Notes: a model not told the origin generated them from the letters alone. 64,000 nucleotides of DNA from Candidatus Omnitrophota bacterium (GCA_042571405.1 JBHPHU010000001.1:9298-73297), one strand, 5' to 3'; counted from the stretch's first letter, positions 2,493 through 51,611 are shown. A program made the numbers and translations.

Positions 2493-3793
2493 AAAAATCC
2501 AGAAAGCTGGTTACCTGCCTTAAAACAAATAAAAAACAGGAAATAATAAGGCTTCTCTACGAGATATCAAAAAGAGAAAATATAGAGCCCGATAATATAG
2601 TAAAAAAAATAGACCTTAAAAACTTTGACCGCATAAAAAAAGATCTATTGAAAAGAAGATTTCCTCGAGCGCATCCATCCCCATTTAAGGTCCATCTCCC
2701 TAAAATAAAACTGACTACTGATTCAATACAAAATACTAAAAAGCTGGAATTCTATCCAAAAAAAATATTTATAGAAAAATCCGCAAAGGCCTCTGCCATG
2801 GCGCAGAGATTTAAAAAATCCTTTCCCAAGGCCAAATCTACAGAGATTAAATCCCTGAAGGATTATCTTAAGGAAAATAGACGCCTTACGATCCCTGATT
2901 ATAACAAAAGAAAAGATACCGTCTTTATAACTTATGAAAACTACGATTTCTTTAAAAAATGTCCCTGCACAAAAAAGGCGATCGGATGCGGCTACCATAT
3001 ATTTAACCTGAGCTTTGGCTGCCTGTTCGACTGCACTTACTGCTATCTTCAGGAATATACTAATAGCCCCGGCCTTATATTTCCAGCAAATATTGATAAA
3101 TTCTTCAAAAACTTTTCCTTGTATAAAAAACCTGGCATGCGCATAGGAACAGGCGAGTTCTCAGATTCCCTAATGCTCGACCACATAACAGAATATTCCA
3201 TTCCTATAATAGAATTTTTCAAAAAACATAAAGATGTAACATTCGAATTTAAGACAAAAAGTGTAAATATAGATAATCTCTTGAAAACAAAGCATGCCGG
3301 TAATATAGTAGTTGCCTGGTCTTTAAACCCGCAGAAAATCATTGATGAGAATGAATTTTTTACGCCTTCGCTTACAGAACGCCTAGATGCGGCTAAAAAA
3401 TGCGTCGAGGCAGGCTACAAGGCCTCTTGCCATTTTGATCCAGTAGTGTATTCCAGGGGCTGGGAAAAAGAATACAAAAAAGTAATAGAAATGCTTTTTG
3501 ATACGATAAAACCGAAAGACATAGCATGGATAAGCATAGGCACGCTAAGATTTAATCCAAAGGTAAAACAAACTATTGAGGCGCGCTTCCCTGCTAACAA
3601 GATTCTTAACGAAGAATTGATCCTGGATTTTGACAATAAACTAAGATACCCTTACAGCATACGGCAAGAGGTCTATGATAGTATGCTAAAAACGCTTCAC
3701 AGTCATTCTAAAAAACTTTCGATATATCTCTGCATGGAAAATAGTTCTATGTGGCGGGAATTAAAACTAAGACCGACTAGACTTTTCCGGTAA
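2459..3793 (+). CDS. radical SAM protein, spore-photoproduct-lyase-like family
   Basis: CLFDCTYCYLQ is a CX3CX2C radical-SAM motif. Length and surrounding motifs resemble the SplB-like family. Confidence 0.65.
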   Translation: MRSYKKESARLKKSRKLVTCLKTNKKQEIIRLLYEISKRENIEPDNIVKKIDLKNFDRIKKDLLKRRFPRAHPSPFKVHLPKIKLTTDSIQNTKKLEFYPKKIFIEKSAKASAMAQRFKKSFPKAKSTEIKSLKDYLKENRRLTIPDYNKRKDTVFITYENYDFFKKCPCTKKAIGCGYHIFNLSFGCLFDCTYCYLQEYTNSPGLIFPANIDKFFKNFSLYKKPGMRIGTGEFSDSLMLDHITEYSIPIIEFFKKHKDVTFEFKTKSVNIDNLLKTKHAGNIVVAWSLNPQKIIDENEFFTPSLTERLDAAKKCVEAGYKASCHFDPVVYSRGWEKEYKKVIEMLFDTIKPKDIAWISIGTLRFNPKVKQTIEARFPANKILNEELILDFDNKLRYPYSIRQEVYDSMLKTLHSHSKKLSIYLCMENSSMWRELKLRPTRLFR

Positions 3794-5242
3794 AACTTTT
3801 ATTGCCCGCTCAGGCCTTGCAGGGCATTTGTTTTGGCAGATTCCGCAGCCTATACATAAATCCGGGTCAACACTGGGTTTTAATACTATATCATCTATTA
3901 CCTTGATGGCTTTATTGGGCACAGGGCAATGCTCTTCGCATACGATACATTGCATATTCTTAGACCAGGCAATGCATTTTGAACGGTCTACCTTTGCTAT
4001 GCCAAGTCTTGTTCTTTTTTTCTCTTCCACACTTAACTTTGGTATAGCGCCTGTTGGGCAGACATTTCCACAAAGAGTACAGGTATATTCGCAATAGCCT
4101 ATCTCCGGCACAAGATGCGGAGTCCACATACCCTGCAGGCCTGATTCAAAAATAGCTGGCTGGAGTCCATTGGTTACACAGACTCTCATGCAATTGCCGC
4201 AGCGTATACAACGATCCAAAAACTCTCCTTCTTTCAATGCAGCAGGCGGCCTGATCACCTTTTGCGCTATTAAACGCGTCTTATTTCTAAATCCAAGAGA
4301 CAAAGAAGAGGCAAGCATCAAGAATAAAAACTCACGACGCGATATATTGCCTTTTTCCCCATTCCGACCTCGTAGGTCGACCTCGTAGGTCGACCTACGA
4401 GGTCGGAATGGTAATTGTAAGGTAAATCTGGTTCCTTGTACCGGGCAATCATATATGCAGTCCATACAAAGTATGCATTCGCCCTTTACATAGCTTAAAT
4501 CCTTGTTTATAGCTCCCATCCTGCAGTCTTCTTTGCACTTAAGACAATTCGTACATTTTTCAACTACCCGCCCCAGTGGAGAAAATCTGGCCAGTAAAGA
4601 ATATATTGCGCCCAAAGGACAGATTGCGCGGCACCAAAACCTTTTTGCTATTAAAACTGATGAACATACTAAAACAAAAAATATCAAGATTATACCTGAA
4701 TGAGAAAAATAGTAGGTGTTTATTCCGAGGACTGAAGATTTTAGTAAACGATAAAAATCATACAACGGGGTATAGTAATCTGCCTTTATTATAAAAAATC
4801 TAAGTACTCTATCAAGGCCAGAAGTAACGCCCGGGATAAGATTCAGGGAGACAAACCTTGCTGTAATCACTATTGGATCGAAGATCCAGGCAATCTGGAT
4901 TCCCAAAAAAGAAAATATAGCAATAGCGCCAAGGATATAAAATTTTATAGAGTACGGGATTTTATTCTGCTTTTTTTTCTGGCTTCCACACAGATCTATA
5001 ACAGTACCCAGAGGACAAATCCAACCGCAGAAAAACCTACCAATGCCCAATGTCAATAGCATCATAATAACCGCAAATATTATTCCAGGCAGCATTATGC
5101 GTTCGCTTATGGAGGTAAATATCATTATCAAGGGATTGATTTTAAAGAATACATCTAGATATGTCGCGGACCAAAGGATATATACGAATAATGTGAGAAA
5201 TAAAAATTGGGAGGATCTTCTAAGAATGACTAATTTTTTCAT
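3767..5242 (-). CDS. membrane-anchored polyferredoxin (NapH/MauN-like N-terminus plus several 4Fe-4S clusters)
   Basis: N-terminal TM helices with CGWICPLG and CRAICPLG. C-terminal CxxCxxCxxxCP clusters. An internal palindromic element and a Tat-like RREFLF segment sit mid-protein. Confidence 0.65.
   Translation of the reverse strand: MKKLVILRRSSQFLFLTLFVYILWSATYLDVFFKINPLIMIFTSISERIMLPGIIFAVIMMLLTLGIGRFFCGWICPLGTVIDLCGSQKKKQNKIPYSIKFYILGAIAIFSFLGIQIAWIFDPIVITARFVSLNLIPGVTSGLDRVLRFFIIKADYYTPLYDFYRLLKSSVLGINTYYFSHSGIILIFFVLVCSSVLIAKRFWCRAICPLGAIYSLLARFSPLGRVVEKCTNCLKCKEDCRMGAINKDLSYVKGECILCMDCIYDCPVQGTRFTLQLPFRPRRSTYEVDLRGRNGEKGNISRREFLFLMLASSLSLGFRNKTRLIAQKVIRPPAALKEGEFLDRCIRCGNCMRVCVTNGLQPAIFESGLQGMWTPHLVPEIGYCEYTCTLCGNVCPTGAIPKLSVEEKKRTRLGIAKVDRSKCIAWSKNMQCIVCEEHCPVPNKAIKVIDDIVLKPSVDPDLCIGCGICQNKCPARPERAIKVLPEKSSRS
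4359..4411. repeat. GC-rich palindromic element, family 2 (CCTCGTAGG core), translated in frame
   Basis: ccattccgacctcgtaggtcga / cctcgtagg / tcgacctacgaggtcggaatgg gives 22-bp perfect arms. It encodes PFRPRRSTYEVDLRGRNG in the minus-strand ORF. Confidence 0.85.
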
Positions 5243-7519: not shown

Positions 7520-9940
7520 ATGACAAATAATCCATTGTGGAAATTCCTGGATGACACAGGCACTTTTGTTGCGAAAAATCCGCACGAGGTAAGCAGGCTC
7601 TATTTTCCGCTTGCGAATGAAAAAGGCTTGCTCTCTTCCATAACCCCTACACTTCACGGAGACATAAAGACAGGCCAGAATACATTCCTCACGCCGCCTG
7701 TTTCCACTGAAGATTTGAGCAATTCAAGATATGGCCGTAACTTCTGGCTTTATATCAAAGGCCATGGCGCATGGTCAGCTGCTTCAGGTGAAGTAGATAA
7801 ATCCCTGATAGAAGCAGGCATGCTGTGGCATAAGGTTATTCGCTCTAATAAAAAAATAGGCCTGAAAGCGGCTTTCACTAATTTTATCCCTGCAGACAAA
7901 CTCGCAGTAGAAATAATGTCTGTAGAGCTCACAAATATATCCTCTAAAAAACTTACTATCACCTCGACAGCTGCCATACCTATATATGCACGCTCAGCAG
8001 ACAGATTACGCGACCACAGGCACGTAAGCGCGCTTTTTAACCGCGTCAGACTGCACAAAAACGGTATTATCGTAAAACCAGCTATGGTATTTGACGAACA
8101 GGGGCATAAAATCAACTCTACATCTTATTTTGTACTTGGCTGTGATGAAAATGGTAATGCTCCTGATAGCTCTATTCCTACTATTTCTCAATTTACAGGC
8201 GAAGGTGGAAATCTTGATAAACCCAAAGCTGTACTAGACCCTGTACGGACGCGGTGTCCGGACAACGCGTCCGTACAGGGAAAAGAAACAATGGGTGCAA
8301 TAGGATTTAAAACCGTTACACTCCTGCCAGGAAGATCTAAGAGATACATCATCGTAATAGGCATAACTCAAGAAGAAAAACCTGAAGCCATATTCAGTAA
8401 ATTCAATTCGCGCAAAAAAATAGATGCCGCGCTTTTAGCAAACAAAGAATTCTGGCTCAAAAATACAAGCTCGATAAGCTCTTCTACGGGAAATAAAGAC
8501 TTTGACAGATGGTTTAGATGGGTAATGCTCCAGCCTATATTGCGTAAGATTTTCGGATGCTCCTTTCTCCCTGATTTTGACTATGGTAAAGGCGGCAGAG
8601 GCTGGCGGGACCTTTGGCAGGATTGTCTTACGCTGCTTCTAATAAATCCAGGCCAGGCCCGCGATATGCTCATTAATAATTTTGGAGGCTGCCGGCCGGA
8701 TGGTTCGAATGCCACTATAATAGGAAAAAAGCAGGGCGAGTTCATTCCTGACAGGAATGATCTAAGGCGTGTGTGGATGGACCATGGAATGTGGCCATTT
8801 ATGACCATTAATCTATATATAAATCAAACAGGAGATACAAATATCCTCTTTAAAAAAGCGCCGTTTTTTGAAAGTAAAAAAATAGCTGATGTTTTAAATC
8901 ATATACTGCGCCAGCATGAAAGACCCTTTACAAAGATCGGTAAACATGGGAATTTCCTGCTCGAAGGCGCGGACTGGAATGACGGACTTGATATGGCATC
9001 TCAACGCGGCGAAAGCGTAGCCTTTACAGCTGCGTATGCGGGTAATTTATATGCGCTTGGAGATTTACTGGAAAAGATAGGGTATAAAAAACAAACTATA
9101 AATGAACTTCGAAGAAAGGCTGATAAACTCGTCAATAACATACGCAAAAACGAATGGATAAAAACAAAATCCGGCTACAGTTTTTTTAATGGTTACTATG
9201 ACAATAAAGGAAAACGCGTTGAGGGAAATAAAAGAATGACCTTAACCGGCCAGGTCTTTCCTATCATGAGTGGTGTTGCAACAGATAAGCAAATCAAAGA
9301 GATATACAGAAGCGCAAAAAAATATCTCTGGGATAAAAAATTAGGAGGATTCAGGCTAAATACTGACTTTGGAGGAGTTTATCCTGATCTCGGCAGGGCA
9401 TTTGGGTTTGCATATGGCGAAAAAGAAAACGGCTCTTTCTTCAGCCACATGAATGTAATGTTTGCCTATGCGCTTTATAAAAGAGGGTTTGCAAAACAGG
9501 GTTTTGAAGTCTTAAATTCTATTTACAAGATGTGCATGAATACAAGCATAAGCAAGATCTATCCAGGCCTTCCTGAATATTTCAATTCTGAGGGGCGAGG
9601 CATGTATCATTATCTTACCGGCTCTGCAAGCTGGTTTGCGCTTACCATGCTTACTCAGGTATTTGGGATCCGGGGGAATATGGGAGACCTTTTAATTGAC
9701 CCGAAACTCACAAAAGAACAATTCGTAAAATCCACAAAGATCTCAATCGATACAAATTTCGCTGGAAGAAAAATAAAGACTACCTACATCAATCCTAGAA
9801 AGCTAGATTATGGAAAGTATAAAATAGGAAAGATTGTCATTAATGAAAAGATTACGACAAAACCACTAATAAAAAGAGAAGAACTTCTAAAAATTACTTC
9901 GAAAAATTTCCCCAACGCAATCAACGTTTATCTAAATTAA
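7520..9940 (+). CDS. GH94/GH36-type glycoside phosphorylase-like protein (cellobiose-phosphorylase superfamily)
   Basis: About 806 aa. GADWNDGLDM catalytic-region motif. The start is moved to the ATG at 7520, just after the nitroreductase stop. Confidence 0.6.
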   Translation: MTNNPLWKFLDDTGTFVAKNPHEVSRLYFPLANEKGLLSSITPTLHGDIKTGQNTFLTPPVSTEDLSNSRYGRNFWLYIKGHGAWSAASGEVDKSLIEAGMLWHKVIRSNKKIGLKAAFTNFIPADKLAVEIMSVELTNISSKKLTITSTAAIPIYARSADRLRDHRHVSALFNRVRLHKNGIIVKPAMVFDEQGHKINSTSYFVLGCDENGNAPDSSIPTISQFTGEGGNLDKPKAVLDPVRTRCPDNASVQGKETMGAIGFKTVTLLPGRSKRYIIVIGITQEEKPEAIFSKFNSRKKIDAALLANKEFWLKNTSSISSSTGNKDFDRWFRWVMLQPILRKIFGCSFLPDFDYGKGGRGWRDLWQDCLTLLLINPGQARDMLINNFGGCRPDGSNATIIGKKQGEFIPDRNDLRRVWMDHGMWPFMTINLYINQTGDTNILFKKAPFFESKKIADVLNHILRQHERPFTKIGKHGNFLLEGADWNDGLDMASQRGESVAFTAAYAGNLYALGDLLEKIGYKKQTINELRRKADKLVNNIRKNEWIKTKSGYSFFNGYYDNKGKRVEGNKRMTLTGQVFPIMSGVATDKQIKEIYRSAKKYLWDKKLGGFRLNTDFGGVYPDLGRAFGFAYGEKENGSFFSHMNVMFAYALYKRGFAKQGFEVLNSIYKMCMNTSISKIYPGLPEYFNSEGRGMYHYLTGSASWFALTMLTQVFGIRGNMGDLLIDPKLTKEQFVKSTKISIDTNFAGRKIKTTYINPRKLDYGKYKIGKIVINEKITTKPLIKREELLKITSKNFPNAINVYLN
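8239..8280. repeat. GC-rich palindromic element, family 1 (GACGCGTTGTC core), translated in frame
   Basis: ccctgtacggacgcggtgtc cg gacaacgcgtccgtacaggg gives 20-bp arms with 1 mismatch. Encodes DPVRTRCPDNASVQGK. Confidence 0.85.
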
Positions 9941-13397: not shown

Positions 13398-13601
13398 CTC
13401 GCTCGTCTTTTTGAGCTCACAGGCTGGGGCCTTCGGCACTGGAGAGATTTTGCCGTCCGCTACGGTTTACAACTCGTTTCTCGACCACGCTATCGCCTGG
13501 ATTTCCTGGCCCGAAACTCCCTGTAAATCCTTGCGGACTTTTGCCAAAATCTTCCTAATGTGTCTCAAGCCCCAGCCTGTGAGCTCAAAAAGACGAGCGA
13601 G
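13398..13601. other. 204-nt GC-rich rod-like hairpin with 33-bp perfect terminal inverted repeats (candidate structured RNA or MITE)
   Basis: ctcgctcgtctttttgagctcacaggctggggc at 13398-13430 is the exact reverse complement of 13569-13601. The interior pairs imperfectly (gagattttg / caaaatcttc, gtccgc / gcggac, tttaca / tgtaaa). Confidence 0.7.
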
Positions 13602-13624
13602 CAAATAAAAGGATCTGCTTATAA

Positions 13625-13940
13625 AAGCTAAAAAGGAAGGGTTGAAGAGCGAATTTGAAAATTTAGTCTTTTATGTAGCATTTTGGCGGTTTATTCTGCC
13701 ACATTCTATGAGGCAAAAAGGCCGAAAACTGTTCGACACCCACACCTATGGTGTGGGTGAAGTTTTTTCGGCCCCACCAAAATGCGGAATAAAAGACGAC
13801 CCCGCCCTTTTGTTTAGTGCGTTTCGCATTATGAATGCATCAGCAATTTATAATGCGTAACGCTTACTGTAAAGCTAGACACCTTAACAAAAGGGTGGGG
13901 GAAATTTTCATCTGAGCGAACAGACCTTCCTTTTTAGCTT
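13625..13940 (+). ncRNA. candidate ~316-nt multi-stem structured RNA of unknown family
   Basis: 16-bp perfect closing stem (13625-13640 / 13925-13940). Nested hairpins include ggccgaaaaact..agttttttcggcc around cacccacacc-tat-ggtgtgggtg. Also ccccgcccttttgtt / aacaaaagggtgggg (G.U valid on the + strand only) and gcgtttcgcattat..ataatgcgtaacgc. Confidence 0.45.
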
Positions 13941-14015
13941 AAGACTGTACTGTGACTATTCAAATGCTATAAGCAACAACTATACTTTATTGCACTTATA
14001 AGGTACAATACTTGC

Positions 14016-15941
14016 ATGATTTATGATGCGTTTCAGAAAACGGCTATTGATTATATTAAAGATGGGAATTCGGTTATAGTGTCTGCTCCGACAGGTGCGG
14101 GCAAGACTGTAATTGCTGAATATATCATACTGGACTGCCTTAAAAAAGGTACAAAGGTAATATATACCGCTCCTATAAAGGCCCTGTCTAACCAGAAATT
14201 TCGCGACTTTCAGGAAATATTCCCTGATAAAACAGGCATACTCACGGGTGATGTGTCTATAAATCCCAACGCGAGTGTCCTTATCATGACCACAGAGATA
14301 TTCCGCAACAAAGTGCTTGAAGAAGGGTCTAATGTGGGTGATTATTCCTGGATAATATTTGACGAAGTGCATTATCTTGATGATTACCAGCGCGGGAGCG
14401 TGTGGGAAGAATCTTTGATCTTCCTGCCGAAGCACATGAAAATGCTTGCGCTCTCAGCCACAATACCAAATATAGATGAACTTGCCTTGTGGCTCAAATC
14501 CATACACAAACTGCCTTTAAAGGTAGTAAAAGAAAATACCAGGCCAGTACCGCTTCATTTTTTCTATCAGATACAGGGTCAGATAGTTGATAATATACAT
14601 AAGGCAAGAACCATAGGATACAAAAGAGGCGGGCATAGCTATGGCCATAGAAGATCCCATTCCGGACATAAGCACTTCAAACCAAACAGGTCCACTTCGC
14701 TCATAAAGCATCTTCACGAAAACAATAAACTCCCATGCATATATTTTGCCTTTGGCAGACGCAGATGCGAATCTCTCGCGAATGAAATGACAAACTTTGA
14801 TTTCTTAACGCAGGAAGAAAAAACCAGGGTATTAGAACTTTATAATAAATTATGCGAGAGATTTGAGATCGCAAATGATAAAAGCGCTCAGCTCATGCTT
14901 CCTCTAATTGAAAAAGGTATAGCACACCATCATGCTGGCATGCTCCCTACTTTAAAGGAGGTTATTGAGCGACTTTTTACATCCAGGCTTCTAAAGGTAA
15001 TTTTTACCACAGAGACTTTTGCGCTTGGGATCAATATGCCCGCAAGGACAGTGATCTTTGATGAGCTTAGAAAATTCTATGGGAAATCCTTTGGCACACT
15101 TAAGACACGTGACTTTTTTCAGATGGCTGGCAGGGCTGGCAGGCGCGGTATAGACAAAGAGGGATTTGTGTATAGCCGCGTAAATCCAAATTACACATCA
15201 TTCCCTGAACTCCAAAAAGTAATCTATGGCGCTCCTGAAAAGGTTTTTTCCAGATTCAACGCGTCATACGGCACTATCCTTAACCTGTATGACAAATACG
15301 GTGAAAAGCTGTATGATGTATATCCTCTTTCCTTCCACTGCTTCCAGGCAAAGCAAAAGTTTAGACACAGGGCCACAGAACTACTACGCGCAAAGGTAAA
15401 GATCCTGAAAGAACTCGGCTATATCAGAAAAAATCAAATTTCAGAAAAAGGCGTTTTCGCGTCCAATATCTACGGGTATGAGTTATCACTGGGCGAGCTT
15501 TACGAAAAAGGTGTATTGCAAAATCTAAATGAAATAGAACTTGGAATTCTGTGCGCCGCGCTTATATTTGAACCAAGAAAATCCAGCACCATGCCAAGTA
15601 TCAGCAAAAACGCACGGTCTTTACAAAATGTAACCGACAATCTTACCAGCAATATACAAAAATTAGAAAAAAAGCTAAAGATAAAACCTTTCAGCAAGAC
15701 CTATTATTACCACTTCTCCCCCTGCATTGAGGCGTGGATGAAACAGGAACCATTTGACAGGCTCCTGCGCTACACAGACGCTGACGAAGGTGAGATCATA
15801 AGAAACTTCCGCATGTCTGTCCAGATCCTACGCGAAATCCTAGACACCCCCACTTCCCAGGAGTTCAAAGAAAGAGTAAAAAAGACAATCTACCTAATAA
15901 ATCGAGACATAATCGATGCGGAGAGACAGCTGCGAAGCTAG
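14016..15941 (+). CDS. Ski2-like DEAD/DEAH-box helicase (HelY/Mtr4-like)
   Basis: Motif I APTGAGKT, motif II DEVH, HHAGMLP, QMAGRAGRRG. The C-terminal region is DSHCT-like. Confidence 0.8.
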   Translation: MIYDAFQKTAIDYIKDGNSVIVSAPTGAGKTVIAEYIILDCLKKGTKVIYTAPIKALSNQKFRDFQEIFPDKTGILTGDVSINPNASVLIMTTEIFRNKVLEEGSNVGDYSWIIFDEVHYLDDYQRGSVWEESLIFLPKHMKMLALSATIPNIDELALWLKSIHKLPLKVVKENTRPVPLHFFYQIQGQIVDNIHKARTIGYKRGGHSYGHRRSHSGHKHFKPNRSTSLIKHLHENNKLPCIYFAFGRRRCESLANEMTNFDFLTQEEKTRVLELYNKLCERFEIANDKSAQLMLPLIEKGIAHHHAGMLPTLKEVIERLFTSRLLKVIFTTETFALGINMPARTVIFDELRKFYGKSFGTLKTRDFFQMAGRAGRRGIDKEGFVYSRVNPNYTSFPELQKVIYGAPEKVFSRFNASYGTILNLYDKYGEKLYDVYPLSFHCFQAKQKFRHRATELLRAKVKILKELGYIRKNQISEKGVFASNIYGYELSLGELYEKGVLQNLNEIELGILCAALIFEPRKSSTMPSISKNARSLQNVTDNLTSNIQKLEKKLKIKPFSKTYYYHFSPCIEAWMKQEPFDRLLRYTDADEGEIIRNFRMSVQILREILDTPTSQEFKERVKKTIYLINRDIIDAERQLRS

Positions 15942-30331: not shown

Positions 30332-31210
30332 ATGGGAGAATTGCCAAAAGATAAACTGCTTACAATCAGAAAAATCCTCACTGAAGCGCAAAAAGGCAAA
30401 GATACGAAAGAACGCATTGAAATTTTTGTAAAAGAATTCAGCGATCAATACGATAATTTAGGTCCTGACGCAATAGCATGGATGCGGCATTCTGTATTGG
30501 TGGCGGAAGAAGTTTTTGGCCTGGAGATAGACCACTTCCTCGATAGCAGCCCGCAAGGCGCATGGGATAGCACCACACCCGTATTGACTGCGGCTATGCT
30601 CCATTACATAAAGCCGGAACACACTGTTATATCACTAGGCCCCGGTCCTTTCGCTACTGAGGCATGTGTGGTAAGCAAAGAAAAAGATATGCAGATTATA
30701 ACGCTGGAAATCTGGGAACCCTACATTGAGAGTGGCAAAAAAACCTCTGAAGCAAACAATGCCAATGTAATATTCATAAAATCTGACGTCTATACACCTA
30801 TAGACCCTGTACAGACGCGTTGTCTGCCGAAGGCAGACAACGCGTCTGTACAGGACAAAAACAAACTACCTGAGAATGTAGACTATATTACGTGGAACCC
30901 CCCTTATGTGCCAAGTGCGGATGCTAAAAAATCAGGTTTCTTTGATAGCCCTAAAGTGGTTTCGTATGCATTCGATGGCGGGCCGGAAGGCACAACATTG
31001 ATAGAGCGCGGCCTCAGAGAACTCCCTGAAAACTGGAAGACAAATGCTAAGCTACTCTTTGGCGTAAACACTGTAAAGGTGTCAGAAGACAGTATGCGTC
31101 GTATTGCAGAAAAAAACGGATTCAATCTGCTTGAGATATTTAAACTCTCTGGCAGTCCATGTGAAGTCTTTGTATTTCAGCACACTTCAGCTATTACCGG
31201 AGATAAATGA
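30332..31210 (+). CDS. SAM-dependent methyltransferase (NPPY-type, HemK/PrmC-like)
   Basis: TWNPPYVPS motif. Interrupted in frame by the palindromic element at 30806-30854. Confidence 0.7.
   Translation: MGELPKDKLLTIRKILTEAQKGKDTKERIEIFVKEFSDQYDNLGPDAIAWMRHSVLVAEEVFGLEIDHFLDSSPQGAWDSTTPVLTAAMLHYIKPEHTVISLGPGPFATEACVVSKEKDMQIITLEIWEPYIESGKKTSEANNANVIFIKSDVYTPIDPVQTRCLPKADNASVQDKNKLPENVDYITWNPPYVPSADAKKSGFFDSPKVVSYAFDGGPEGTTLIERGLRELPENWKTNAKLLFGVNTVKVSEDSMRRIAEKNGFNLLEIFKLSGSPCEVFVFQHTSAITGDK
30806..30854. repeat. GC-rich palindromic element, family 1, translated in frame
   Basis: cctgtacagacgcgttgtctgcc gaa ggcagacaacgcgtctgtacagg gives 23-bp perfect arms. Encodes PVQTRCLPKADNASVQ. Confidence 0.9.
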
Positions 31211-33259: not shown

Positions 33260-34733
33260 ACTGCATCCCATCATAATAATAGGCGGCCTTACGCTACTAG
33301 GCGGACTGCTTAGATTTTATCATCTAGGATATAAATCCCTATGGTTCGATGAAGCTGGACTCTACTGGATAGCTCGCGGCAGAGATATTATGGAAATAAT
33401 CTCTTTGAACGCCGCAGGGAACAGCGCTCCGCCCCTATTCCCCCTCCTGGTAAATCTTATCTCAAAGATCGGCGACTCGGAAGCAATATTACGATCTATA
33501 TCTTTCCTGGCCGGAACTGCTGCCATTCCCGCAGTATACTTTTTATGCAAACAGTTCCTTCACAGATACACTGCTTACTTTTGCGCGTTTCTTGTCGCTA
33601 TCTCCTCATCGCAAGTCATGTATTCTCAGGAACTGCGCGAATATTCTGTAGCGTTCCTCCTCGCGACATTGATACTTTTATTCTTCAATAGGTTCCTGCG
33701 CGAACAAAACTACAAAAATCTGCTCTACTTGGCATTGGCCTCTATTATAGGTATTTTTTCTCAATATGGCCTCGCGCTTTTAATCTTGGCTCTTAATCTG
33801 ATCGTAGCCGTAGAGTTATTTTTTATAAACGATAAAAAGAAACTACTTACCGGATGGGCTGCAATTCAATTCCTTGTACTGTGCGCAGCTATTGTGACCT
33901 ACCAGCTTTCACTGAGACATCAGATGGAATCAGGTTTTGGCGCCGGATATCTGGCAAATGCCTATTGGGACGGATCACTGGGCTCTTTGATCAAACTAGC
34001 AACAGTAAACACATATCAGTTTTTCGCATTCGCCTCTTCTGCGTCTGGCCTATTCTGTTTTATATTCTTCATCGGCTTCTTAAACGAGTTGAAAAAACGC
34101 TCTGATCGAACAGCGCTTATGCTGCTTATCTTTCCAATGGTCATTACATTTATCGCTGCGTGCGCCAGGCTATATCCATATCTTGGCAGAAGGCAAGATA
34201 TCTTTCTTGTGCCTATGATTTACGTTTTTGCAGGATTTGGGTTTGAGTTTTTGTCTAAGTTAGACCTTGTCCAGACGCGTTGTCTGCCGAAGGCAGACAA
34301 CGCGTCTGGACAAGGTAAGAAACGAATCATTATCTTGCCTTTAGTGTTAATTCTGGGATTCGTAGGACTTTATCGTACAGGAGAATATCTAAAAGATCCA
34401 GGATTCCAGCATATCAGGCCCGTCATAAAGACTTTGTCAGCTTCGTTTGAACCCAAAGACAGAATGTACATCTATTACGGAGCTAATCCCGCCTTTAGAT
34501 ATTATTATCGAAAGAATATGGATAGAAGGATTTATGGCGTGCGCAGTATAGAGAAACCTGAAAAATATCTCACGCAACTGGATGAAGCTTTATCAAAGCA
34601 AGGCCGTATCTGGATGGTATTTTCGCATTGCCATCCCAATGAACCTGAGTTAATCACGCAGCATACCTCTAAATACCGCAAAGTTAAGCTGGTTTCGACT
34701 AGCCCCGGGGCGTTTCTATATCTTGCGGACTAG
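33249..34733 (+). CDS. GT39/ArnT-like membrane glycosyltransferase
   Basis: Many TM helices and N-terminal YHLGYKSLWFDEA (DE motif loop). Interrupted in frame by the palindrome at 34265-34315. Confidence 0.6.
   Translation: MKVKLHPIIIIGGLTLLGGLLRFYHLGYKSLWFDEAGLYWIARGRDIMEIISLNAAGNSAPPLFPLLVNLISKIGDSEAILRSISFLAGTAAIPAVYFLCKQFLHRYTAYFCAFLVAISSSQVMYSQELREYSVAFLLATLILLFFNRFLREQNYKNLLYLALASIIGIFSQYGLALLILALNLIVAVELFFINDKKKLLTGWAAIQFLVLCAAIVTYQLSLRHQMESGFGAGYLANAYWDGSLGSLIKLATVNTYQFFAFASSASGLFCFIFFIGFLNELKKRSDRTALMLLIFPMVITFIAACARLYPYLGRRQDIFLVPMIYVFAGFGFEFLSKLDLVQTRCLPKADNASGQGKKRIIILPLVLILGFVGLYRTGEYLKDPGFQHIRPVIKTLSASFEPKDRMYIYYGANPAFRYYYRKNMDRRIYGVRSIEKPEKYLTQLDEALSKQGRIWMVFSHCHPNEPELITQHTSKYRKVKLVSTSPGAFLYLAD
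34265..34315. repeat. GC-rich palindromic element, family 1, translated in frame
   Basis: ccttgtccagacgcgttgtctgcc gaa ggcagacaacgcgtctggacaagg gives 24-bp perfect arms. Encodes LVQTRCLPKADNASGQ. Confidence 0.9.
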
Positions 34734-42775: not shown

Positions 42776-43018
42776 TCATCCAACAATACGCAACGCAAAA
42801 TACGGGACAATATTAAATACAAACACGGCTATTTTGAAAAATGCTATGCCGGCATAATGAATTGTATCAAAGCTTTCTACCGACAGCTTAAACCATTTGC
42901 TATGAAACCGGTAGACCCAATCATGTAACACCGTAATAGCAAAAAACCACCACAGAAGCAGTCCCATATTAATTATCGAACACCATCCTAGTGTTGCGCG
43001 CATCATCTCAATTGTCAT
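42776..43018 (-). CDS. small two-TM membrane protein
   Basis: 80 aa, GAGGAGG RBS upstream, hydrophobic helices. Confidence 0.45.
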   Translation of the reverse strand: MTIEMMRATLGWCSIINMGLLLWWFFAITVLHDWVYRFHSKWFKLSVESFDTIHYAGIAFFKIAVFVFNIVPYFALRIVG

Positions 43019-43098
43019 TTAACACCTCCTCTTTCAATGTATTATATTCCAAATAAAATCCCCTTGCAACTTAATTTATTGCAAGGGGTTAGAAAGAG

Positions 43099-43134
43099 TG
43101 GCTCCACCTATATAGCGCATTTCGCAACTGGTTG
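43099..43134 (-). repeat. tRNA-3'-half-like boundary element, copy a
   Basis: Minus sense: caaccagttgcgaaatgcgctatataggtggagcca. It is followed by the terminator hairpin at 43060-88 plus a T-run. Confidence 0.7.
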
Positions 43135-43182
43135 GATTCAGGGGAAGCTGGAAAAACTGTCAAAAGAATTAGTGTTTATCGG

Positions 43183-43560
43183 CTAAATATCATCTTTTGT
43201 AATCCAACTAATAGCATTATCATAATTCTCAAATACTTTAGTTATATTCCCTGTTTTTATCTTATCGCCTTGAGACCACAGTTTATGCCATCCGTCAGAC
43301 AATCCAACATTAACTACAATGGCTGACTTTCCATTCCCAATTTTTTCTTCGTTTTTCTTATGAAAGGTTCTTATTTTTTGCAAATCATCAAAAGACACTT
43401 TGTTAAATTCCAGAGCTGTGTGGTCAAATACTACATTGCAATTTTGCGAAAAATAAGGATGGCGCAACAAGTCTTCTGCCATCTTAATGAAATCCTCAGC
43501 ATTCATCCTGCCGCTTGTCTTTACAACAAGTAATTTAGTATAGTTTATTTTATAATTCAT
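43183..43560 (-). CDS. hypothetical protein (single-gene cassette)
   Basis: 125-aa ORF bounded by element copies a and b. No motif recognised. Confidence 0.5.
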   Translation of the reverse strand: MNYKINYTKLLVVKTSGRMNAEDFIKMAEDLLRHPYFSQNCNVVFDHTALEFNKVSFDDLQKIRTFHKKNEEKIGNGKSAIVVNVGLSDGWHKLWSQGDKIKTGNITKVFENYDNAISWITKDDI

Positions 43561-43622
43561 TTTCTTATTTTACTCCAAAACAAAACTCTCCACAACTATT
43601 TTAATTGCAGAGTGTTACGTAG

Positions 43623-43658
43623 TGGCTCTCTGTATTAAATGAGTTTCGCAACTGGTTA
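43623..43658 (-). repeat. tRNA-3'-half-like boundary element, copy b
   Basis: Minus sense: taaccagttgcgaaactcatttaatacagagagcca, then the hairpin ctctgcaa..ttgtggagag plus a T-run. Confidence 0.7.
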
Positions 43659-43936
43659 CACCTGAAAGGAGCCAACCTATTTACTCAAAAATCAGCTAAT
43701 TTGATTGTGATTTAAGGATTTTAAAAAAGCTCTCGTTAGAGCTTTCTTGTAGGATTATCGCTCAGAGGCATGCAAAAATTAAGAAACTTGTCCCTTTTAC
43801 TCACAGAAAGTTCTCTTAACTGCTTATAAAATATTGCCTTAACCAAAGTAGAATGTATCATGTCAACTGTCATAAGTATTAAAGATTTTATGTCCATTGT
43901 GAGCTACTCTACTTTTAGGAAATGGGTTAATAATGC

Positions 43937-45196
43937 CTATATATAGTTTTGCATCTTCATATAACATTTTATCTGTTTATCTCTTAATTCTTGATCCACA
44001 ATTGGGACTACTTCTCTTATATGTTGAGGAAGCCCATAATCAGTTTCTTTTAATGTATCTATACGTATAACCCTGCAGGCCTTTTTAATCAATTGAAAAT
44101 AAGGCACTTCTATTTCAGGAAGTTTTATCGGAAATTTATCGCTCATATCTGGGGAGCCTGGTGATGCTCCAGCAATATCATCTGTAACAAAGTAAGATTT
44201 TCTTTTTTTCATTTTCTTTTCATAAAGAAAAGTTATAATATTACCTAATCTTTGACTTACATTACTAGAATATTCCGAAACAAGATTCTGACCTGCCCGC
44301 AAATAAACCGCATTAAGGCTTTTATCGGAGATAAGCTCGTCAATAACGGGTTCGTAAATGGGGGGATAAGCAAGATTTACACTAACAAACGTGATTGCAT
44401 ACCACTCTTTCTTGTTACCGGGATATTTCAATTGAAATTTTATACGCGGGTGCCCCTTTTCTTCGTCAACTTTAATATTTGCAACATCAGCACCAATACC
44501 GTAAAAATCCAATGCTAAATGTTCCAGAGTATGATCCAAACTCATTAAATTGGGAAATAAGCTAAGTCCGTTTTTAAATCTATATTCAAGCCCAGGAGCA
44601 TTTTTTTGTTTTAATTTCTCTATTTTATCTTGGCTTAAATTTTCAAAGTATTCCTTAAATCGCGCAGTAACTTCTTTATTTTTACCTAAAGCTCCATACA
44701 TTCCATCCTGATAAAAAGCCATAAAATATCCTATTCGAGCATTAAAAGATCGCATGAAATTAATAACGTCATACGCTGCTCCCAGATAAACAGCGGTATA
44801 TTCAGGATCATCATCTGGGTTTACAATTCTCTTAATCTCCATATCATGAAAAAGATATGAAACATCCAACATATCTGTTGCAATACCAATATTGAGTTTT
44901 TTGGCAATTGCAAGCCGTTTTTCAGAAGATGTTTCTCCTGCAAGCCGTACAAGAAGATTCTCTTTTTCATCCTCGACAAACAAAACAGGTTTTTTCAATA
45001 TATTTTTCTTATTAATAACTTGTTGCATCCTATTTTTGCTATCCAAGGTACTATATTTTAGGGGAATACGAAGCGTGGTGACCCTAGTATTTGACATAAG
45101 AGATAATCTTAGATACCTATCAGCACTATAAGCTGCAGCTGAAAATAAAACCACAAACAATATTATTAAAGTTAACTGTTTTTTAATCCTTATCAT
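43937..45196 (-). CDS. secreted hypothetical protein
   Basis: Signal peptide MIRIKKQLTLIILFVVLFSAAAYSA. Start at 45196 behind GGGTGGA. Its translation-initiation region is shared with 29067-30170. Confidence 0.6.
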   Translation of the reverse strand: MIRIKKQLTLIILFVVLFSAAAYSADRYLRLSLMSNTRVTTLRIPLKYSTLDSKNRMQQVINKKNILKKPVLFVEDEKENLLVRLAGETSSEKRLAIAKKLNIGIATDMLDVSYLFHDMEIKRIVNPDDDPEYTAVYLGAAYDVINFMRSFNARIGYFMAFYQDGMYGALGKNKEVTARFKEYFENLSQDKIEKLKQKNAPGLEYRFKNGLSLFPNLMSLDHTLEHLALDFYGIGADVANIKVDEEKGHPRIKFQLKYPGNKKEWYAITFVSVNLAYPPIYEPVIDELISDKSLNAVYLRAGQNLVSEYSSNVSQRLGNIITFLYEKKMKKRKSYFVTDDIAGASPGSPDMSDKFPIKLPEIEVPYFQLIKKACRVIRIDTLKETDYGLPQHIREVVPIVDQELRDKQIKCYMKMQNYI

Positions 45197-45354
45197 AATC
45201 CACCCAAAAAACAACCCTTTCTCAAGAGTTGAGTTAATCTACTTATTCAATTATAAGTATACCACAAATATTGCTTATTTACAAAAAAATAACCTGCCAA
45301 AAATGACAGGTTACCCTAGTCGTTACTTATTGTAAATAAATGAGTTACAAGTAG

Positions 45355-45390
45355 TGGCTCCCCGTATTGGACGAGTTTCGTAACTGGCTA
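45355..45390 (-). repeat. tRNA-3'-half-like boundary element, copy c
   Basis: Minus sense: tagccagttacgaaactcgtccaatacggggagcca. It is followed by the two-hairpin module at 45290-45347. Confidence 0.7.
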
Positions 45391-45460
45391 ATTAGTATAA
45401 AAAATTAATATTCCACTTTCTATGCTTCTTTTGTGGTATACTGCAAGAAAAGGAGAAACC

Positions 45461-45619
45461 ATGAAAGAAATTGCCTCGATTAAAAAAAAGAGAATCTGTA
45501 AGTTACTTCACTGTAAGAGTGTTTTAAGTATTTACAACCGTGGGGAGTACTGTTATTTCCACAAGAGAGAAGTTTTTAATAAAAAATCTCATCCATTATC
45601 CAGCATCAGCGCCAGTTAA
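45461..45619 (+). CDS. small Cys/His-rich protein
   Basis: Strong RBS (AAAGGAGAAACC then ATG). 52 aa with C..C...C.FH pattern. One of the few plus-strand ORFs in the array. Confidence 0.4.
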   Translation: MKEIASIKKKRICKLLHCKSVLSIYNRGEYCYFHKREVFNKKSHPLSSISAS

Positions 45620-45720
45620 CAATACAAACTTTAAGAACCCTGCCCTCTTATTTTTACATACTGCAACATAAACAAAAAACCCCTTGCAACTTATTTAGTT
45701 ACGAGGGGGGTTAAAAGTAG

Positions 45721-45752
45721 TGGCTCTCCCAAGACTACGACTTTCGCAATAC
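45721..45752 (-). repeat. tRNA-3'-half-like boundary element, copy d (subfamily with copy i)
   Basis: Minus sense: gtattgcgaaagtcgtagtcttgggagagcca, then the hairpin cccctcgtaac..gttgcaagggg plus a T-run. Confidence 0.6.
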
Positions 45753-45787
45753 TTCGGTAAGCTCAGTGCAAGCTTTTTTGGAGGAGT

Positions 45788-46000
45788 TTAGGGATTATTG
45801 CTTATCGCAAAAGCATGGTGATGAGTAATAACCCCACTTGCCATTCTTTCAGTAAATGGCAGCGCAAGGACATGTTGCTTTGGATGATTCTCAAAAGCCT
45901 GTTTGGTTATCTCAAATATTGCATTTATCTCTGATTCTTTCTCTGCGCGGATAATCAAAGTGAACCCTCCAAATAATATAAATTCTACTCCAAAACACAA
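45788..46000 (-). pseudogene. possible GNAT acetyltransferase N-terminal fragment
   Basis: IIRAEKESEINAIFEITKQAF resembles a GNAT N-terminus, but the ORF is only 70 aa. Confidence 0.3.
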
Positions 46001-46083
46001 CCCTCTGCTACTATATTAGTCGCAGAGGGTTATAAAAAGTTTTATATATTATGTTTGGCTACGTAGTTTCTTTAAAAAATTTA

Positions 46084-46347
46084 TTACTCCCAGTCTTCCA
46101 AATCGTCCCAGCCCGGCCCATCAGGAATACCGTCTCCTGAGTTTGGTGCTGGCCCTGGGCTCTTCCCTGTATCTGAGCCATTGGGGCCATTTGGTGTGTC
46201 AAGACCGCTGCCATCAGGAATTCCATCTCCTGAATTTGTTGCTGGTCCAGGACTATTCCCTGAATCAGCAGCCATCGCGGAGCCAATACCAACTAATAAT
46301 AAAGCCATTAACATTGATAAAACCAATATTTTCTTCATGCTTTTCAC
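46084..46347 (-). CDS. small secreted Gly/Pro/Asp-rich repeat protein
   Basis: Signal peptide plus two SPGPA[TP]NSGDGIPDG[SP]G repeats and a GGAGG RBS. Other frames in this GC-rich patch are rejected. Confidence 0.5.
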   Translation of the reverse strand: MKSMKKILVLSMLMALLLVGIGSAMAADSGNSPGPATNSGDGIPDGSGLDTPNGPNGSDTGKSPGPAPNSGDGIPDGPGWDDLEDWE

Positions 46348-46456
46348 CTCCTTATCTGAATATTTTTTATTATATGTCCGCTACATGCTGAATGTCAAGG
46401 CTTATAAAAAATAAGCCCTCTACACCAAAAGTTTGGTGAGAGCGCTTACCGATATG

Positions 46457-46497
46457 TGGCTCCCCCCCCCCTATATGACGCATTTAGCAACTGGTTG
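46457..46497 (-). repeat. tRNA-3'-half-like boundary element, copy e (contains a G10 run)
   Basis: Minus sense: caaccagttgctaaatgcgtcatatag-G10-agcca, followed by the terminator at 46401-46447. Confidence 0.65.
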
Positions 46498-46539
46498 TGG
46501 CAGGATTTAGCTCTATAAATAAGGTACTCTAAGAATATT

Positions 46540-46908
46540 TTACCCTATGAACTTTCTTACTTTACTCAATAATTCCTCTGGCTCAAACGGTTTCATTATA
46601 CAATTATCCGCGCCCATTTCTTTTATCTTCTCAGGAAGTTTGGAGCGAATGGCACTGGCAGTAAACAAAATAATGGGAATATGTTTAAATTTGTCATCAG
46701 ATTTTAGCTTTTTACAAAGTTCATCCCCCTGCATTTTGGGTAAGAGTAAATCCAGTAATATTAAATCACAAACATCATTTTGCAGAAAGGCTATCGCCCC
46801 CTCTGCGTCAACTGCAGATATAATTTCATACCCTGAATGCTTTAATCTCATTGTTGCAACATCCATTATATCCGGCTCATCATCAACAATAAGTATTTTT
46901 TTTGCCAT
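46540..46908 (-). CDS. response regulator receiver protein
   Basis: KILIVDDEPD, LILLDLLLP, receiver-only domain. Start MAKKIL at 46908. Confidence 0.85.
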   Translation of the reverse strand: MAKKILIVDDEPDIMDVATMRLKHSGYEIISAVDAEGAIAFLQNDVCDLILLDLLLPKMQGDELCKKLKSDDKFKHIPIILFTASAIRSKLPEKIKEMGADNCIMKPFEPEELLSKVRKFIG

Positions 46909-46909
46909 A

Positions 46910-48118
46910 TTATATCCTCCGCTCTTCAATAGGCAAGATAAAATAAAAAGCTGTGCCCTTACCAAATTCTGATTCTGCCCAGATTTTTCCTTTATGCGCT
47001 TCTATTATTTTCTTACAAATGGAAAGTCCCAAGCCCGTACCTCCTACTCTTCTTTGTAGTTGCGTGAATTCTTGAAATAGTTTTTGTATGTCTTTTTTTT
47101 CGACGCCTATACCCGTATCTTTAACCATGACTTGAATAAAATTATCTCCTCTATTAGTACTAACAGTAATACCGCCCTTTTCTGTAAATTTAAGGGCATT
47201 ATTTATCAAATTGGTTAAAACTTGAATGATTTTATCCTTATCTAACTTCACTTGAGGGAGATTGTCGTAAAGTTGAACCTCTAAAGTTAGGCCCTTCTCC
47301 TTAGATAAGAGCACCATTGCATTGCATATGCTCTTAACTATCTCATTTATATCGCTATTTTCTATTTTAAACTCCATTTTTCTGGCTTCAAGTTTCTGAA
47401 AATCTAAAACTGCGGTAATTAATCTATCTAATCTATCCACATTATTTTTGGCCATATTCAAATACTTGCCTTGCTCCTCATTGATATCACCGATTAACTT
47501 ATTTAAAACTATACAGATCACTTCTTTGATAACGGCAAGCGGTGTTCTTAATTCGTGAGAAACCATGCCTGTAAACTGCATCCTTATACGCGAAACCTCT
47601 TGCAAATCGCCCATCATATGGAGCATTGCCCTTCGCATTCTGATTAAGTTTTCATTGCGCTCTTCAGTTTCTATTTTATTCTCTTCCAAATCTTTTATAA
47701 TTGCCATAGTCTGGCGCATATCTCTGGCCACACCCACAATGCCGATAACCTTGTTATCCTGCAGCATCTGCCCACACTTAAAATTTACAGGTATAGCCTC
47801 GCCTTGTTTTGTAATGCAAGTCAAACTAATATTATATGTCGAGCCTACAGTAACTATGCTTTCGAAGTATACTTGTAATATTTTTTCTTCTTGTAGAAAA
47901 ATTTTTTTCACTGGTTGGCCGATAAGCTCATCTTCCTGATAATCCAATAAATCCAATACGGCTTTATTTACTGACCTTATCGTGGCATCAAGATTGACTA
48001 CGATCAGAGCATCCATCATTGAGGACATAATACAGTCTAAATACATTTTTTCCTCAAGTTTATTTTCTTTTTTTTCTTTAATGGTAGCTATTTTTCTGGC
48101 CATGTTTTTAAGTATCAT
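46910..48118 (-). CDS. PAS-domain sensor histidine kinase
   Basis: H-box SHELRTPL and N/G boxes (NLINNALKFT, DTGIGV, GGTGLGLSI). Confidence 0.9.
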   Translation of the reverse strand: MILKNMARKIATIKEKKENKLEEKMYLDCIMSSMMDALIVVNLDATIRSVNKAVLDLLDYQEDELIGQPVKKIFLQEEKILQVYFESIVTVGSTYNISLTCITKQGEAIPVNFKCGQMLQDNKVIGIVGVARDMRQTMAIIKDLEENKIETEERNENLIRMRRAMLHMMGDLQEVSRIRMQFTGMVSHELRTPLAVIKEVICIVLNKLIGDINEEQGKYLNMAKNNVDRLDRLITAVLDFQKLEARKMEFKIENSDINEIVKSICNAMVLLSKEKGLTLEVQLYDNLPQVKLDKDKIIQVLTNLINNALKFTEKGGITVSTNRGDNFIQVMVKDTGIGVEKKDIQKLFQEFTQLQRRVGGTGLGLSICKKIIEAHKGKIWAESEFGKGTAFYFILPIEERRI

Positions 48119-49055: not shown

Positions 49056-49101
49056 TTTTCAATCCCTCCTTTTTTTATGTCCTTATTCTTTTACGGATTT
49101 T

Positions 49102-49479: not shown

Positions 49480-49672
49480 TGAATATACCTATCTTTTCAA
49501 TGACATTAACAGTGCCGAATCTATTGTCATTACATTCTCTCATAATACATAGAGTAATAATGATAAACGTTTTCTTGCTTCAAATCGAAGTATATGTATT
49601 TTTATTTAATGTGACAATGAGGAAATAACAGGTAGGTAATGGGTATGATAAATACCTACTAAGGCTTTTCTT

Positions 49673-51550: not shown

Positions 51551-51586
51551 TGGCTCCCTGTATTGGACAGGTTTCGCAAATGGTTA
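51551..51586 (-). repeat. tRNA-3'-half-like boundary element, copy f
   Basis: Minus sense: taaccatttgcgaaacctgtccaatacagggagcca, then the 13-bp hairpin cgagaaggccctt..aagggccttctcg. Confidence 0.7.
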
Positions 51587-51611
51587 TGCCGTGAAGCAAA
51601 AGCTGTCTCTT

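Follow-up and report, generated by a model that had tools for sequence, protein, structure and literature searches.

Within a 64,000-nt stretch of Candidatus Omnitrophota DNA (GCA_042571405.1 JBHPHU010000001.1:9298-73297; hereafter the window), we examined a highly structured element at positions 13625-13940 and conclude that it is probably one copy of a non-coding, interspersed repeat family of the Omnitrophota, non-autonomous and either mobile or formerly mobile, of the same kind as the ERIC, BOX, SPRITE and REPIN repeats. The family is multi-copy and intergenic, occurs in both orientations and is patchily distributed at orthologous sites; its members are modular, one has been hit by an insertion sequence (IS), and their helices have been kept through compensatory changes. 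A first-pass annotation had presented the element as a candidate large structured RNA, suggestively located upstream of a Ski2-like helicase gene. What stands of that proposal is a conserved, non-coding, multi-helix and covarying element with a plus-strand advantage, while the single large RNA tied to the helicase does not, and we saw no sign of a dedicated link between element and helicase. We know of no description of this repeat family, and a literature search on Omnitrophota repeats or non-coding RNAs (ncRNAs) returned nothing relevant. It is a previously uncatalogued family within a well-known kind, the bacterial interspersed structured repeats, and is unusual in its size, the complexity of its junction and the evolutionary depth of its fold.

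The window copy folds far better than expected. Treated as RNA, positions 13620-13945 reach a minimum free energy (MFE) of -147 kcal/mol, whereas dinucleotide shuffles give -76.3 ± 4.35 kcal/mol (z = -16.25; none of 100 reached as low a value). The reverse complement is nearly equal to the plus strand (-142.3 kcal/mol, z = -14.7), the MFE folds containing 112 Watson-Crick and 3 G.U pairs on the plus and 112 Watson-Crick and 4 G.U pairs on the minus strand. Because the minus strand folds almost as well, the window copy alone carries no strand information, and the G.U pairs once adduced in favour of the plus strand lose their force when this copy is taken by itself. The helices described in the first-pass annotation, in contrast, were all recovered where it had placed them. 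These are the perfect 16-bp closing stem P1 (5' arm AAGCTAAAAAGGAAGG, 13625-13640, pairing with the 3' arm CCTTCCTTTTTAGCTT, 13925-13940), the perfect hairpin P6 within P5 (CACCCACACC-TAT-GGTGTGGGTG, 13737-13759), a 15-bp helix (CCCCGCCCTTTTGTT / AACAAAAGGGTGGGG, 13800-13814 / 13886-13900) and an inner hairpin at 13819-13863 (arms GCGTTTCGCATTAT / ATAATGCGTAACGC, 13819-13832 / 13850-13863). The latter two make up the outer and inner parts of V2, a variable nested palindromic module (13800-13900; all features of the element are given on the plus strand).

Between P1 and P2 (5' arm TTGAAAATTT, 13655-13664; partner 13902-13910) lies a purine-rich internal loop with GAGCGAA at 13647-13653, the GCGAA of which is kept in nearly all copies, including the distant member L029 (loci are referred to by L numbers). 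The main arm (13666-13797) was delineated from the MFE fold, the RNAalifold consensus and pair counts, and scores 171 bits with covariance model R1. It comprises P3 (13666-13674 / 13789-13797), P4 (13678-13689 / 13774-13785), the optional hairpin P4a (13696-13715; missing from four of nine aligned copies) and P5 (GGCCGAAAAC / GTTTTTTCGGCC, 13720-13729 / 13762-13773), which encloses P6. A pseudoknot that had been deemed possible in this arm is none: CATTTTGGCGG / CCACCAAAATG is the ordinary nested helix P4, and AATAAAAG pairs with CTTTTAT directly upstream of P4 to form P3, both helices being supported by covariation in related copies. The 3' motif GGGAAATTTTCATCTGAGCGAA (13899-13920) contains the 3' arm of P2 (13902-13910) and then the 3' GAGCGAA (13914-13920), so that the core is indeed flanked by GAGCGAA repeats as reported before. 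This motif is unchanged in every close copy, save one N position permitted in the search pattern. The element likely extends ~25 nt past 13940, to ~13963: a probable 3' extension AAGACTGTACTGTGACTATTCAA (13941-13963) has similar sequence after the copies in L059, L076 and, in part, L069; the flank TAAGACTGTACTGTGACTATTCAA recurs after the L059 and L076 copies; and L059 matches the window at 87% over 13899-13963. Like the first-pass annotation, which had recognised no signature of RNase P, tmRNA, SRP, 6S or riboswitches, we obtained no credible assignment from Rfam 15, where no match reached the gathering threshold and just four chance-level matches to unrelated short families appeared at E <= 10 (E 3-9.7).

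While the 64-kb window holds only one family copy, others are dispersed over related genomes. A 20-nt pattern of the 3' motif (GGGAAATTTTCANCTGAGCG, 19 fixed bases) was scanned in one genome per GTDB species, for which ~4 chance matches are expected by our own arithmetic (19 fixed bases in 2 x 596 Gb). It yielded 16 matches, 14 of them in metagenome-assembled genomes (MAGs) of Omnitrophota, and, viewed in context, the Omnitrophota matches proved to be homologues, whether complete or truncated, whose blocks follow the same order; the cyanobacterial and clostridial matches are without any flanking similarity. By this motif, CAZWYD01, the MAG of the closest relative (93% by helicase), has 6 copies on 5 contigs, JAHIUV01 has 3 and JBDRJN01 has 2. 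The CAZWYD01 MAG (GCA_964637815.1; L056/L059/L060/L062/L068/L069) is labelled 'uncultured Planctomycetia', which is probably wrong given the agreement of its helicase and synteny with Omnitrophota and with the window (86-93%). A profile search over ~0.5 Mb of collected DNA recovered full-length copies in L057, L058, L060, L061, L062, L066 and L069, and 5'-truncated or internally deleted ones in L001, L054, L059, L063 and L067. Two further copies (L075 and L076) came from a protein-database search with a spurious 72-aa open reading frame (ORF) of the element; coding potential was rejected, as open frames differ between copies and no reading frame is conserved. The distant member L029, found by a covariance model of the P3-P6 arm (35.7 bits), lies upstream of a helicase 56% identical to that of the window. 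In total, the family counts 11 full-length copies, this distant member and several truncated copies. Copies measure 217-316 nt and are 60-90% identical to each other in the core (66-88% within one genome). Dispersed copies of the kind seen for miniature inverted-repeat transposable elements (MITEs) had been named beforehand as an outcome that would speak against a dedicated RNA; in substance this is what we found (at least 6, 3 and 2 copies per MAG), with the difference that the copies are not identical. In viral contigs the 3' motif was unmatched and five matches to a 17-mer of the 5' motif were due to chance according to nhmmer, and blastn found no match in plasmid and phage collections.

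All copies are intergenic. Their neighbours include genes for a chorismate-binding enzyme, two ammonium transporters (Amt), a heptosyltransferase (GT9), radical SAM, BioB, LacI, RNase III, UvrA, AIR synthase/TsaE, MscS, SPFH, FBP aldolase (FBA), GT2 and CvpA, the two UvrA-adjacent copies being orthologous and truncated and residing in different MAGs. At least 12 copies stand beside unrelated genes, in both orientations, with ~9 co-oriented and 6 opposed to the flanking genes; two of the nine co-oriented copies were found through plus-strand ORFs, which entails an ascertainment effect. The L069 copy adjoins DNA orthologous to the window around ~23144, where the window has a ~100-nt spacer without the element. 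This site is also a rearrangement breakpoint, given that the other flank of the L069 copy is not present in the window. In L068, the copy is split by an IS481-family insertion sequence (L068 6288-7572; transposase of 396 aa, rve/HTH, L068:6347-7537), which replaces the P5/P6 hairpin region.

The members share one block order (5' to 3', plus strand): P1, the purine loop, P2, a junction with a long arm (P3, P4, P4a, P5, P6), the short arm V2, the 3' motif and P1 again. P1 spans 8-24 bp and varies in sequence between copies (variants AAGCTAAAAGGAAGG, AAACCCAAAGGGAGAC, TAAGCCAAAAGTAGAGGCC and CCCTGAGCATACAGCAACCCCTG); its self-complementarity is always kept, the arms having diverged compensatorily. 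The purine-rich internal loop carries GAGCGAA on both strands, and 5'-GAGCGA-3' read against itself can form the series G.A, A.G, G-C, C-G, G.A, A.G. An excess of GAGCGAA in the window as a whole (20 observed vs 7.9 expected) was considered as well, yet it falls mostly within coding regions and is uninformative on the element. P2 (TGAAAATTT / AAATTTTCA) is a near-invariant 9-bp helix, unchanged in eleven close copies (including the nine of alignment A1, see below) and fully covaried in L029 (GTCGATTTT / AAAATCGAC). P5 and P6 form an A-tract, a GC-rich hairpin and AGTTTTTT; the P6 hairpin covaries in all aligned copies between the fixed flanks AAACTGTyCGA and AGTTTTTTCG. In the window, this terminator-like module (13720-13773) consists of the A-tract, the GC-rich hairpin at 13737-13759 and then AAGTTTTTTC, and matches in a consensus terminator scan, from which a terminator activity may be surmised. 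V2 ranges from ~10 to 100 nt and differs in length and content between copies. As its window version recurs inverted in L068 (32/33 bases identical in the asymmetric part), V2 is itself a nested, invertible or separately inserted palindrome. Besides, there are chimeric copies: in L060 the two P1 arms, which belong to different variants, do not match, and in L067 the 3' motif is attached to a different body.

The first-pass annotation had proposed to look for covariation among relatives, and helices indeed turn out to be kept through many compensatory changes in the related copies. In alignment A1 (nine full-length copies, 75 pairs), 90.7% of cells are paired, versus 37-54% with slid partners. 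Double changes affect 33 of the 75 pairs, a count that none of 500 column shuffles attained (18.1 ± 2.5); slid controls gave 9-14. In a twelve-sequence alignment, in which MAFFT shifts P2-P4 of L029, double changes affect 37 of 68 pairs. Single copies keep 72-73 of the 75 pairs as Watson-Crick, and since they do so at only 60-90% identity, pairing must be actively maintained. This upkeep could be due to selection or to templated correction of quasi-palindromes at the DNA level, and covariation above controls is equally expected for a structure selected as single-stranded DNA (ssDNA). As to the strand, all twelve copies fold more stably on the plus strand (by 1.4-17.5 kcal/mol), G.U pairs in the MFE folds across copies number 41 on the plus versus 27 on the minus strand, the Alifold energy is -76.6 (plus) versus -57.9 (minus), and alignment cells contain 29 G.U versus 17 A.C. 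Five of 12 copies have a U.G at pair 258-355, located at the base of the V2 arm. Much of the bias in energy stems from the purine-rich loops. Altogether, the evidence favours a structure read on the plus strand, the copies not being independent of each other; tandem G.A pairs and G.T wobbles are, however, tolerated in ssDNA too.

On these grounds, a free-standing structured ncRNA family deserves consideration: several paralogues of ~220-320 nt per genome, with the GA-rich loop and P2 as a protein- or RNA-binding core, the RNA itself as the product (a scaffold, a guide or ribozyme-like) and dispersal as a secondary matter. We hold this to be possible, albeit with a limited probability. It would account for the strong covariation in nearly all helices, the preference for the plus strand including the U.G pair mentioned above, an architecture kept at deep divergence with a fully covaried P2, and copies that are old yet intact. 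The junction sequences AAACTGTyCGA and TTTATAAAAGG are conserved though unneeded for pairing, and a mini-hairpin CGAGCGAAGCGAG of several copies is also found within the group I intron of the window, a bona fide RNA. On the other hand, consensus scanning and inspection of the alignment revealed no conserved promoter-like site before or within the copies; a candidate internal sigma-70-type promoter (TTGAAA plus a -10 box) was rejected on account of incorrect spacing and an unconserved -10-like hexamer. Nor can read-through transcription serve all copies, as their orientation to flanking genes is mixed. Furthermore, G.U pairs are rare (~4% of cells) and the stems are near-perfect Watson-Crick helices with 3-nt loops, like DNA palindromes; whole modules have been inverted, deleted or swapped without loss of the copy; many copies are truncated; and none matches Rfam. 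A more specific version appears unlikely to us, namely that of a new, self-contained Omnitrophota structured element, a ~250-nt RNA or ssDNA whose core (the GAGCGAA x GAGCGAA tandem-G.A loop, P2 and the three-way junction) would be, for instance, a ribonucleoprotein scaffold, a guide or a catalytic RNA, and which would multiply without a protein of its own. It would then be in a position comparable to that of the HEARO RNAs at a time when their relation to IscB had yet to be recognised.

Somewhat more doubtful still is a classical cut-and-paste MITE, i.e. a deletion derivative of a DDE-type IS that was mobilised via P1 as terminal inverted repeats and whose internal folding is incidental. The copies are small (under about 500 bp), intergenic, without coding capacity and dispersed in several per genome, their ends are complementary over the 8-24 bp of P1, and IS elements do occur in these genomes (IS481-type in L068). 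However, the termini are the least conserved part of the element, their complementarity being kept and their sequence differing between copies, and no target-site duplication is visible in the 11 copies. In addition, internal helices are maintained by compensatory changes, the copies are far from identical, and the only IS seen, that of L068, is a secondary insertion with unrelated ends. For this reason, and as it itself interrupts a copy, it was rejected as the autonomous parent, and no autonomous IS with matching ends was found in the ~0.5 Mb examined. We also discarded the idea of P1 as a pre-existing target hairpin: no P1 hairpin devoid of the core occurs in the ~0.5 Mb, and P1 variants recur together with the core at different loci and in different genomes.

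The helicase gene downstream of the window copy (14016-15941, plus strand) is a neighbour and not part of the element. Its ATG at 14016 lies 75 nt past the closing stem, as had been noted, and the designation 'Ski2-like' is a fair one for a product with Pfam domains DEAD, Helicase_C and DSHCT. Its best matches (93% to 66% identity) all belong to Candidatus Omnitrophota, and orthologues occur throughout the phylum. The gene order kept in relatives runs from AlaDH through a lysine-aminomutase-like radical SAM protein to an unknown protein of 276 aa; these are followed, in divergent orientation, by the helicase, an amino-acid permease and a Na/Pi transporter. Relatives differ in the spacer that precedes the helicase. 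In the window it measures 670 nt, expanded by the element and by the unrelated element A (see below), as compared with 35 nt and no element in L004 (77% identical helicase). L001/L002 (93%) have two extra genes and a 70-nt hairpin remnant, which in L001 retains only GGGAAATTTTCACCTGAGCGAACAG within a different 16-bp stem; L049 (94%) has a reversed A-like element abutting the helicase promoter and no copy of the present family; L039 (80%) carries a complete homologue, closed by a different stem; and L003 (80%) has an extra TrkA_C gene and an unrelated hairpin. In L003, this position upstream of the helicase is taken by a different palindromic element of ~155 nt (3790-3950), with the closing stem CTTCAGGGCTGGGTGG / CCACCCAGCCCTGAAG and containing GTGAGCGAAGG. 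The helicase spacer thus appears to gather palindromic elements.

Promoter-like hexamers, TATACT (13981-13986) and TACAAT (14004-14009), are conserved downstream of the element, so that the latter probably lies outside the helicase mRNA. The 3' extension holds TTCAAA, which a consensus scan paired with TATACT as a promoter-like site, and which could, going by this match, act as a -35 box. Between the end of TACAAT and the helicase ATG lie 6 nt in the window, L001 and L049; the helicase mRNA may be leaderless or nearly so, or, alternatively, TATACT may be the -10 box. The 3' motif is found in 1 of 49 metagenomic helicase loci (L039), as well as in the window and L001/L002, and the element or a remnant thereof at 4 of ~50 orthologous loci, whereas ~45 helicase orthologues have short upstream spacers (mostly <100 nt) without the TGAGCG motif. 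The co-occurrence with the helicase that the first-pass annotation had proposed to check for is therefore not borne out, and the element is highly unlikely to serve the helicase as a cis-regulatory 5' leader or as a dedicated partner RNA: members in the same orientation do lie upstream of it in the window, L039 (80%) and L029 (56%), with a remnant in L001, but the element is absent before ~45 orthologues, including the close L049 (94%) and L004 (77%), most copies adjoin unrelated genes, the hexamers place it outside the helicase mRNA by consensus reasoning, and the count of helicase-adjacent copies is inflated by ascertainment, helicase loci having been the ones sampled.

For the non-autonomous repeat family that we favour, we suppose that a protein acting in trans recognises the unit in the form of a folded single strand, either ssDNA or, where transcription occurs, RNA, and propagates it in that form. 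This protein would read the P2 helix together with the GAGCGAA/GAGCGAA purine loop, that is, the rod of P1, loop and P2, rather than terminal sequences. We infer recognition of the folded rod because the termini vary freely, target duplications are missing, and P2 with its GAGCGAA flanks is the only near-invariant paired segment. Recognition through P2 and the loop would, in turn, explain the lack of both conserved termini and target-site duplications, as in hairpin-dependent systems of the HUH/RAYT type. Where a copy is transcribed, the module of A-tract, hairpin and T-tract would act as a terminator or as an RNA-stabilising hairpin.

Several observations weigh against a mobile repeat. The copies are old, at 60-90% identity overall and 66-88% within a genome, with no sign of recent bursts, and mobility is seen only as differences in presence and absence and as rearranged flanks. 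In ~15 loci, neither an autonomous partner nor any recurrent neighbouring gene was found, and no transposase, recombinase, reverse transcriptase or nuclease recurs close to the copies. Likewise, no direct repeat flanks any of the 11 copies (no clean pair of filled and empty sites being available to define their exact ends), and no conserved terminal nucleotides were found across copies. Moreover, the architecture survives down to 56% helicase identity with P2 fully covaried and the purine loop strand-specific, and such a deep fold with a strand-specific purine loop would be natural in a functional RNA but is uncommon among plain MITEs. Finally, the same-orientation occurrences upstream of the helicase (the window, the L001 remnant, L039 and L029, hence 3 or 4) could reflect a site preference.

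Among known systems, the ERIC/IRU intergenic repeats of enterobacteria, which have been classed as MITEs (Delihas 2011, PMC3184786), resemble the present family in being non-coding, intergenic, imperfectly palindromic and multi-copy in either orientation, in having size variants caused by internal insertions, and in their predicted RNA folding when co-transcribed. ERIC, however, is ~127 bp long and essentially one long hairpin, whereas the Omnitrophota element has 220-320 nt, a multi-way junction and variable termini. The ERIC-type repeats of Photorhabdus and Xenorhabdus are reported to possess terminal inverted repeats, target duplications and a flanking TA (PMC3184786); in the Omnitrophota element no target duplication is detectable. 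Among pneumococcal repeats, BOX is modular with a variable number of sub-elements, SPRITE has a motif like a Rho-independent terminator (PMC3184786, citing Croucher et al. 2011), and SPRITE and other repeats have been proposed to terminate or stabilise transcripts (PMC3184786). The modular nested hairpins and the conserved A-tract/hairpin/T-tract core of our element are comparable, yet BOX modules are arranged in tandem and the Omnitrophota modules nested inside a closing stem; besides, there is no sequence similarity, and the phylum is a different one. In REP/REPIN-RAYT systems, one folded strand is recognised by its hairpin, dimers form one long stem-loop, and there are no target-site duplications (PMC3116915, PMC3733652). 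Further points of likeness are that the hairpin is conserved rather than the sequence, and that populations persist and diverge inside genomes. REPs have 20-40 nt, stems of 5-13 bp and a GTAG or CGTC tag (PMC3733652); the Omnitrophota element exceeds them tenfold in size and lacks a conserved tag of either type, and thus falls outside the REP definition on both counts. GTAG precedes P4 in the window, but GGAG, TTTG, GAAG and GCCG occur in other copies. A RAYT (Y1/HUH) gene is absent from the neighbours examined, no genome-wide search having been made. HEARO and omega-RNA, related to IS200/IS605, are multi-copy structured RNAs represented in Rfam, at least some of whose copies are accompanied by an IscB or TnpB gene. 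They, too, are large structured non-coding units that look mobile and occur in several copies per genome. No Omnitrophota copy, in contrast, has an associated ORF, and Rfam cmscan finds nothing.

Further repeats and RNA-like features were observed in the window. Element A, a separate palindromic repeat of 204 nt adjacent to the present element (13398-13601), has a perfect 33-bp terminal stem (13398-13430 / 13569-13601; CTCGCTCGTCTTTTTGAGCTCACAGGCTGGGGC) and fold z-scores of -14.1 (plus) and -12.9 (minus). It is repeated as well: the A-like copy beside the helicase in L049 spans 2678-2954 in reversed orientation, and another lies at the end of L057 (5556-5622), 180 nt from a copy of the 13625-13940 family. 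The ends of element A (CTCGCTCGTC / GACGAGCGAG) are reminiscent of the GAGCGA motif and of 'CGTC-tagged' repeats. A REP-like perfect palindrome TAGACCCTGTACAGACGCGTTGTCTGCC-GAAG-GCAGACAACGCGTCTGTACAGG has three window copies (8235-8280, 30801-30861 and 34261-34321), and its CTGCC-GAAG-GCAG tip also caps P6 of the family copies in L039 and L061. Another perfect palindrome, of 25 bp, is found at 4359-4411. On the minus strand, 59060-59400 resembles a tRNA gene, possibly Asn-GUU (exons CCCCTGTAGCTCAGTTGGTAGAGCGCGTGGCTGTT ... AACCACGTTGTCCGAGGTTCGAGTCCTCGCGGGGGAGCCA), with a group I intron (59114-59341; Rfam RF00028, 81 bits) that apparently interrupts the anticodon loop. ARAGORN and Rfam reported no tRNA anywhere in the 64 kb. 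Two sequences like tRNA 3' ends (GGTTCGAGTCCTGCCCGGGGAGCCA; 55842-55867 and 57500-57525, minus strand), with no recognisable 5' half nearby, could belong to intron-containing tRNAs or be tRNA fragments such as att-site remnants. The minus strand of 55880-56060 looks structured, with only sub-threshold Rfam matches. Another recurrent feature is the mini-hairpin CGAGCGAAGCGAG, which combines a GC stem, a GAA loop and tandem G.A. It is present at 59345-59356 (group I intron) and at 55984-55995 (both on the minus strand) and, in other genomes, inside the family copies L054, L062 and L060; possibly it represents a small structural or mobile module that these sites share. Lastly, a 40-nt unit GTTACAAGTAGTGGCTCCCCGTATTGGACGAGTTTCGTAA is present eight times in 43000-57500, with a hairpin AAAAACCCCTTGCAACTTATTT..GCAAGGGG next to every copy; these may represent the conserved ends, with terminators, of genes that form a paralogous array on the minus strand.

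In summary, the present analysis removes a false lead, in that there is no helicase-linked large RNA at this locus, and repeats should therefore be filtered out before structured RNAs are sought in Omnitrophota and similar MAGs. Repeats of this type are also a probable cause of breaks in MAG assemblies; the L059 copy starts at the beginning of the contig stretch examined, the L062 copy lies within 70 nt of the start, and the A-like copy of L057 is cut at the stretch end. As the repeats mark rearrangement points, modelling them is of help in curating assemblies and analysing synteny. Our data further document an old repeat family, with a compensatorily kept fold, in a phylum known almost only from metagenomes, and provide a test case for how palindromic elements persist, be it through selection on a folded single strand or through templated palindrome repair.

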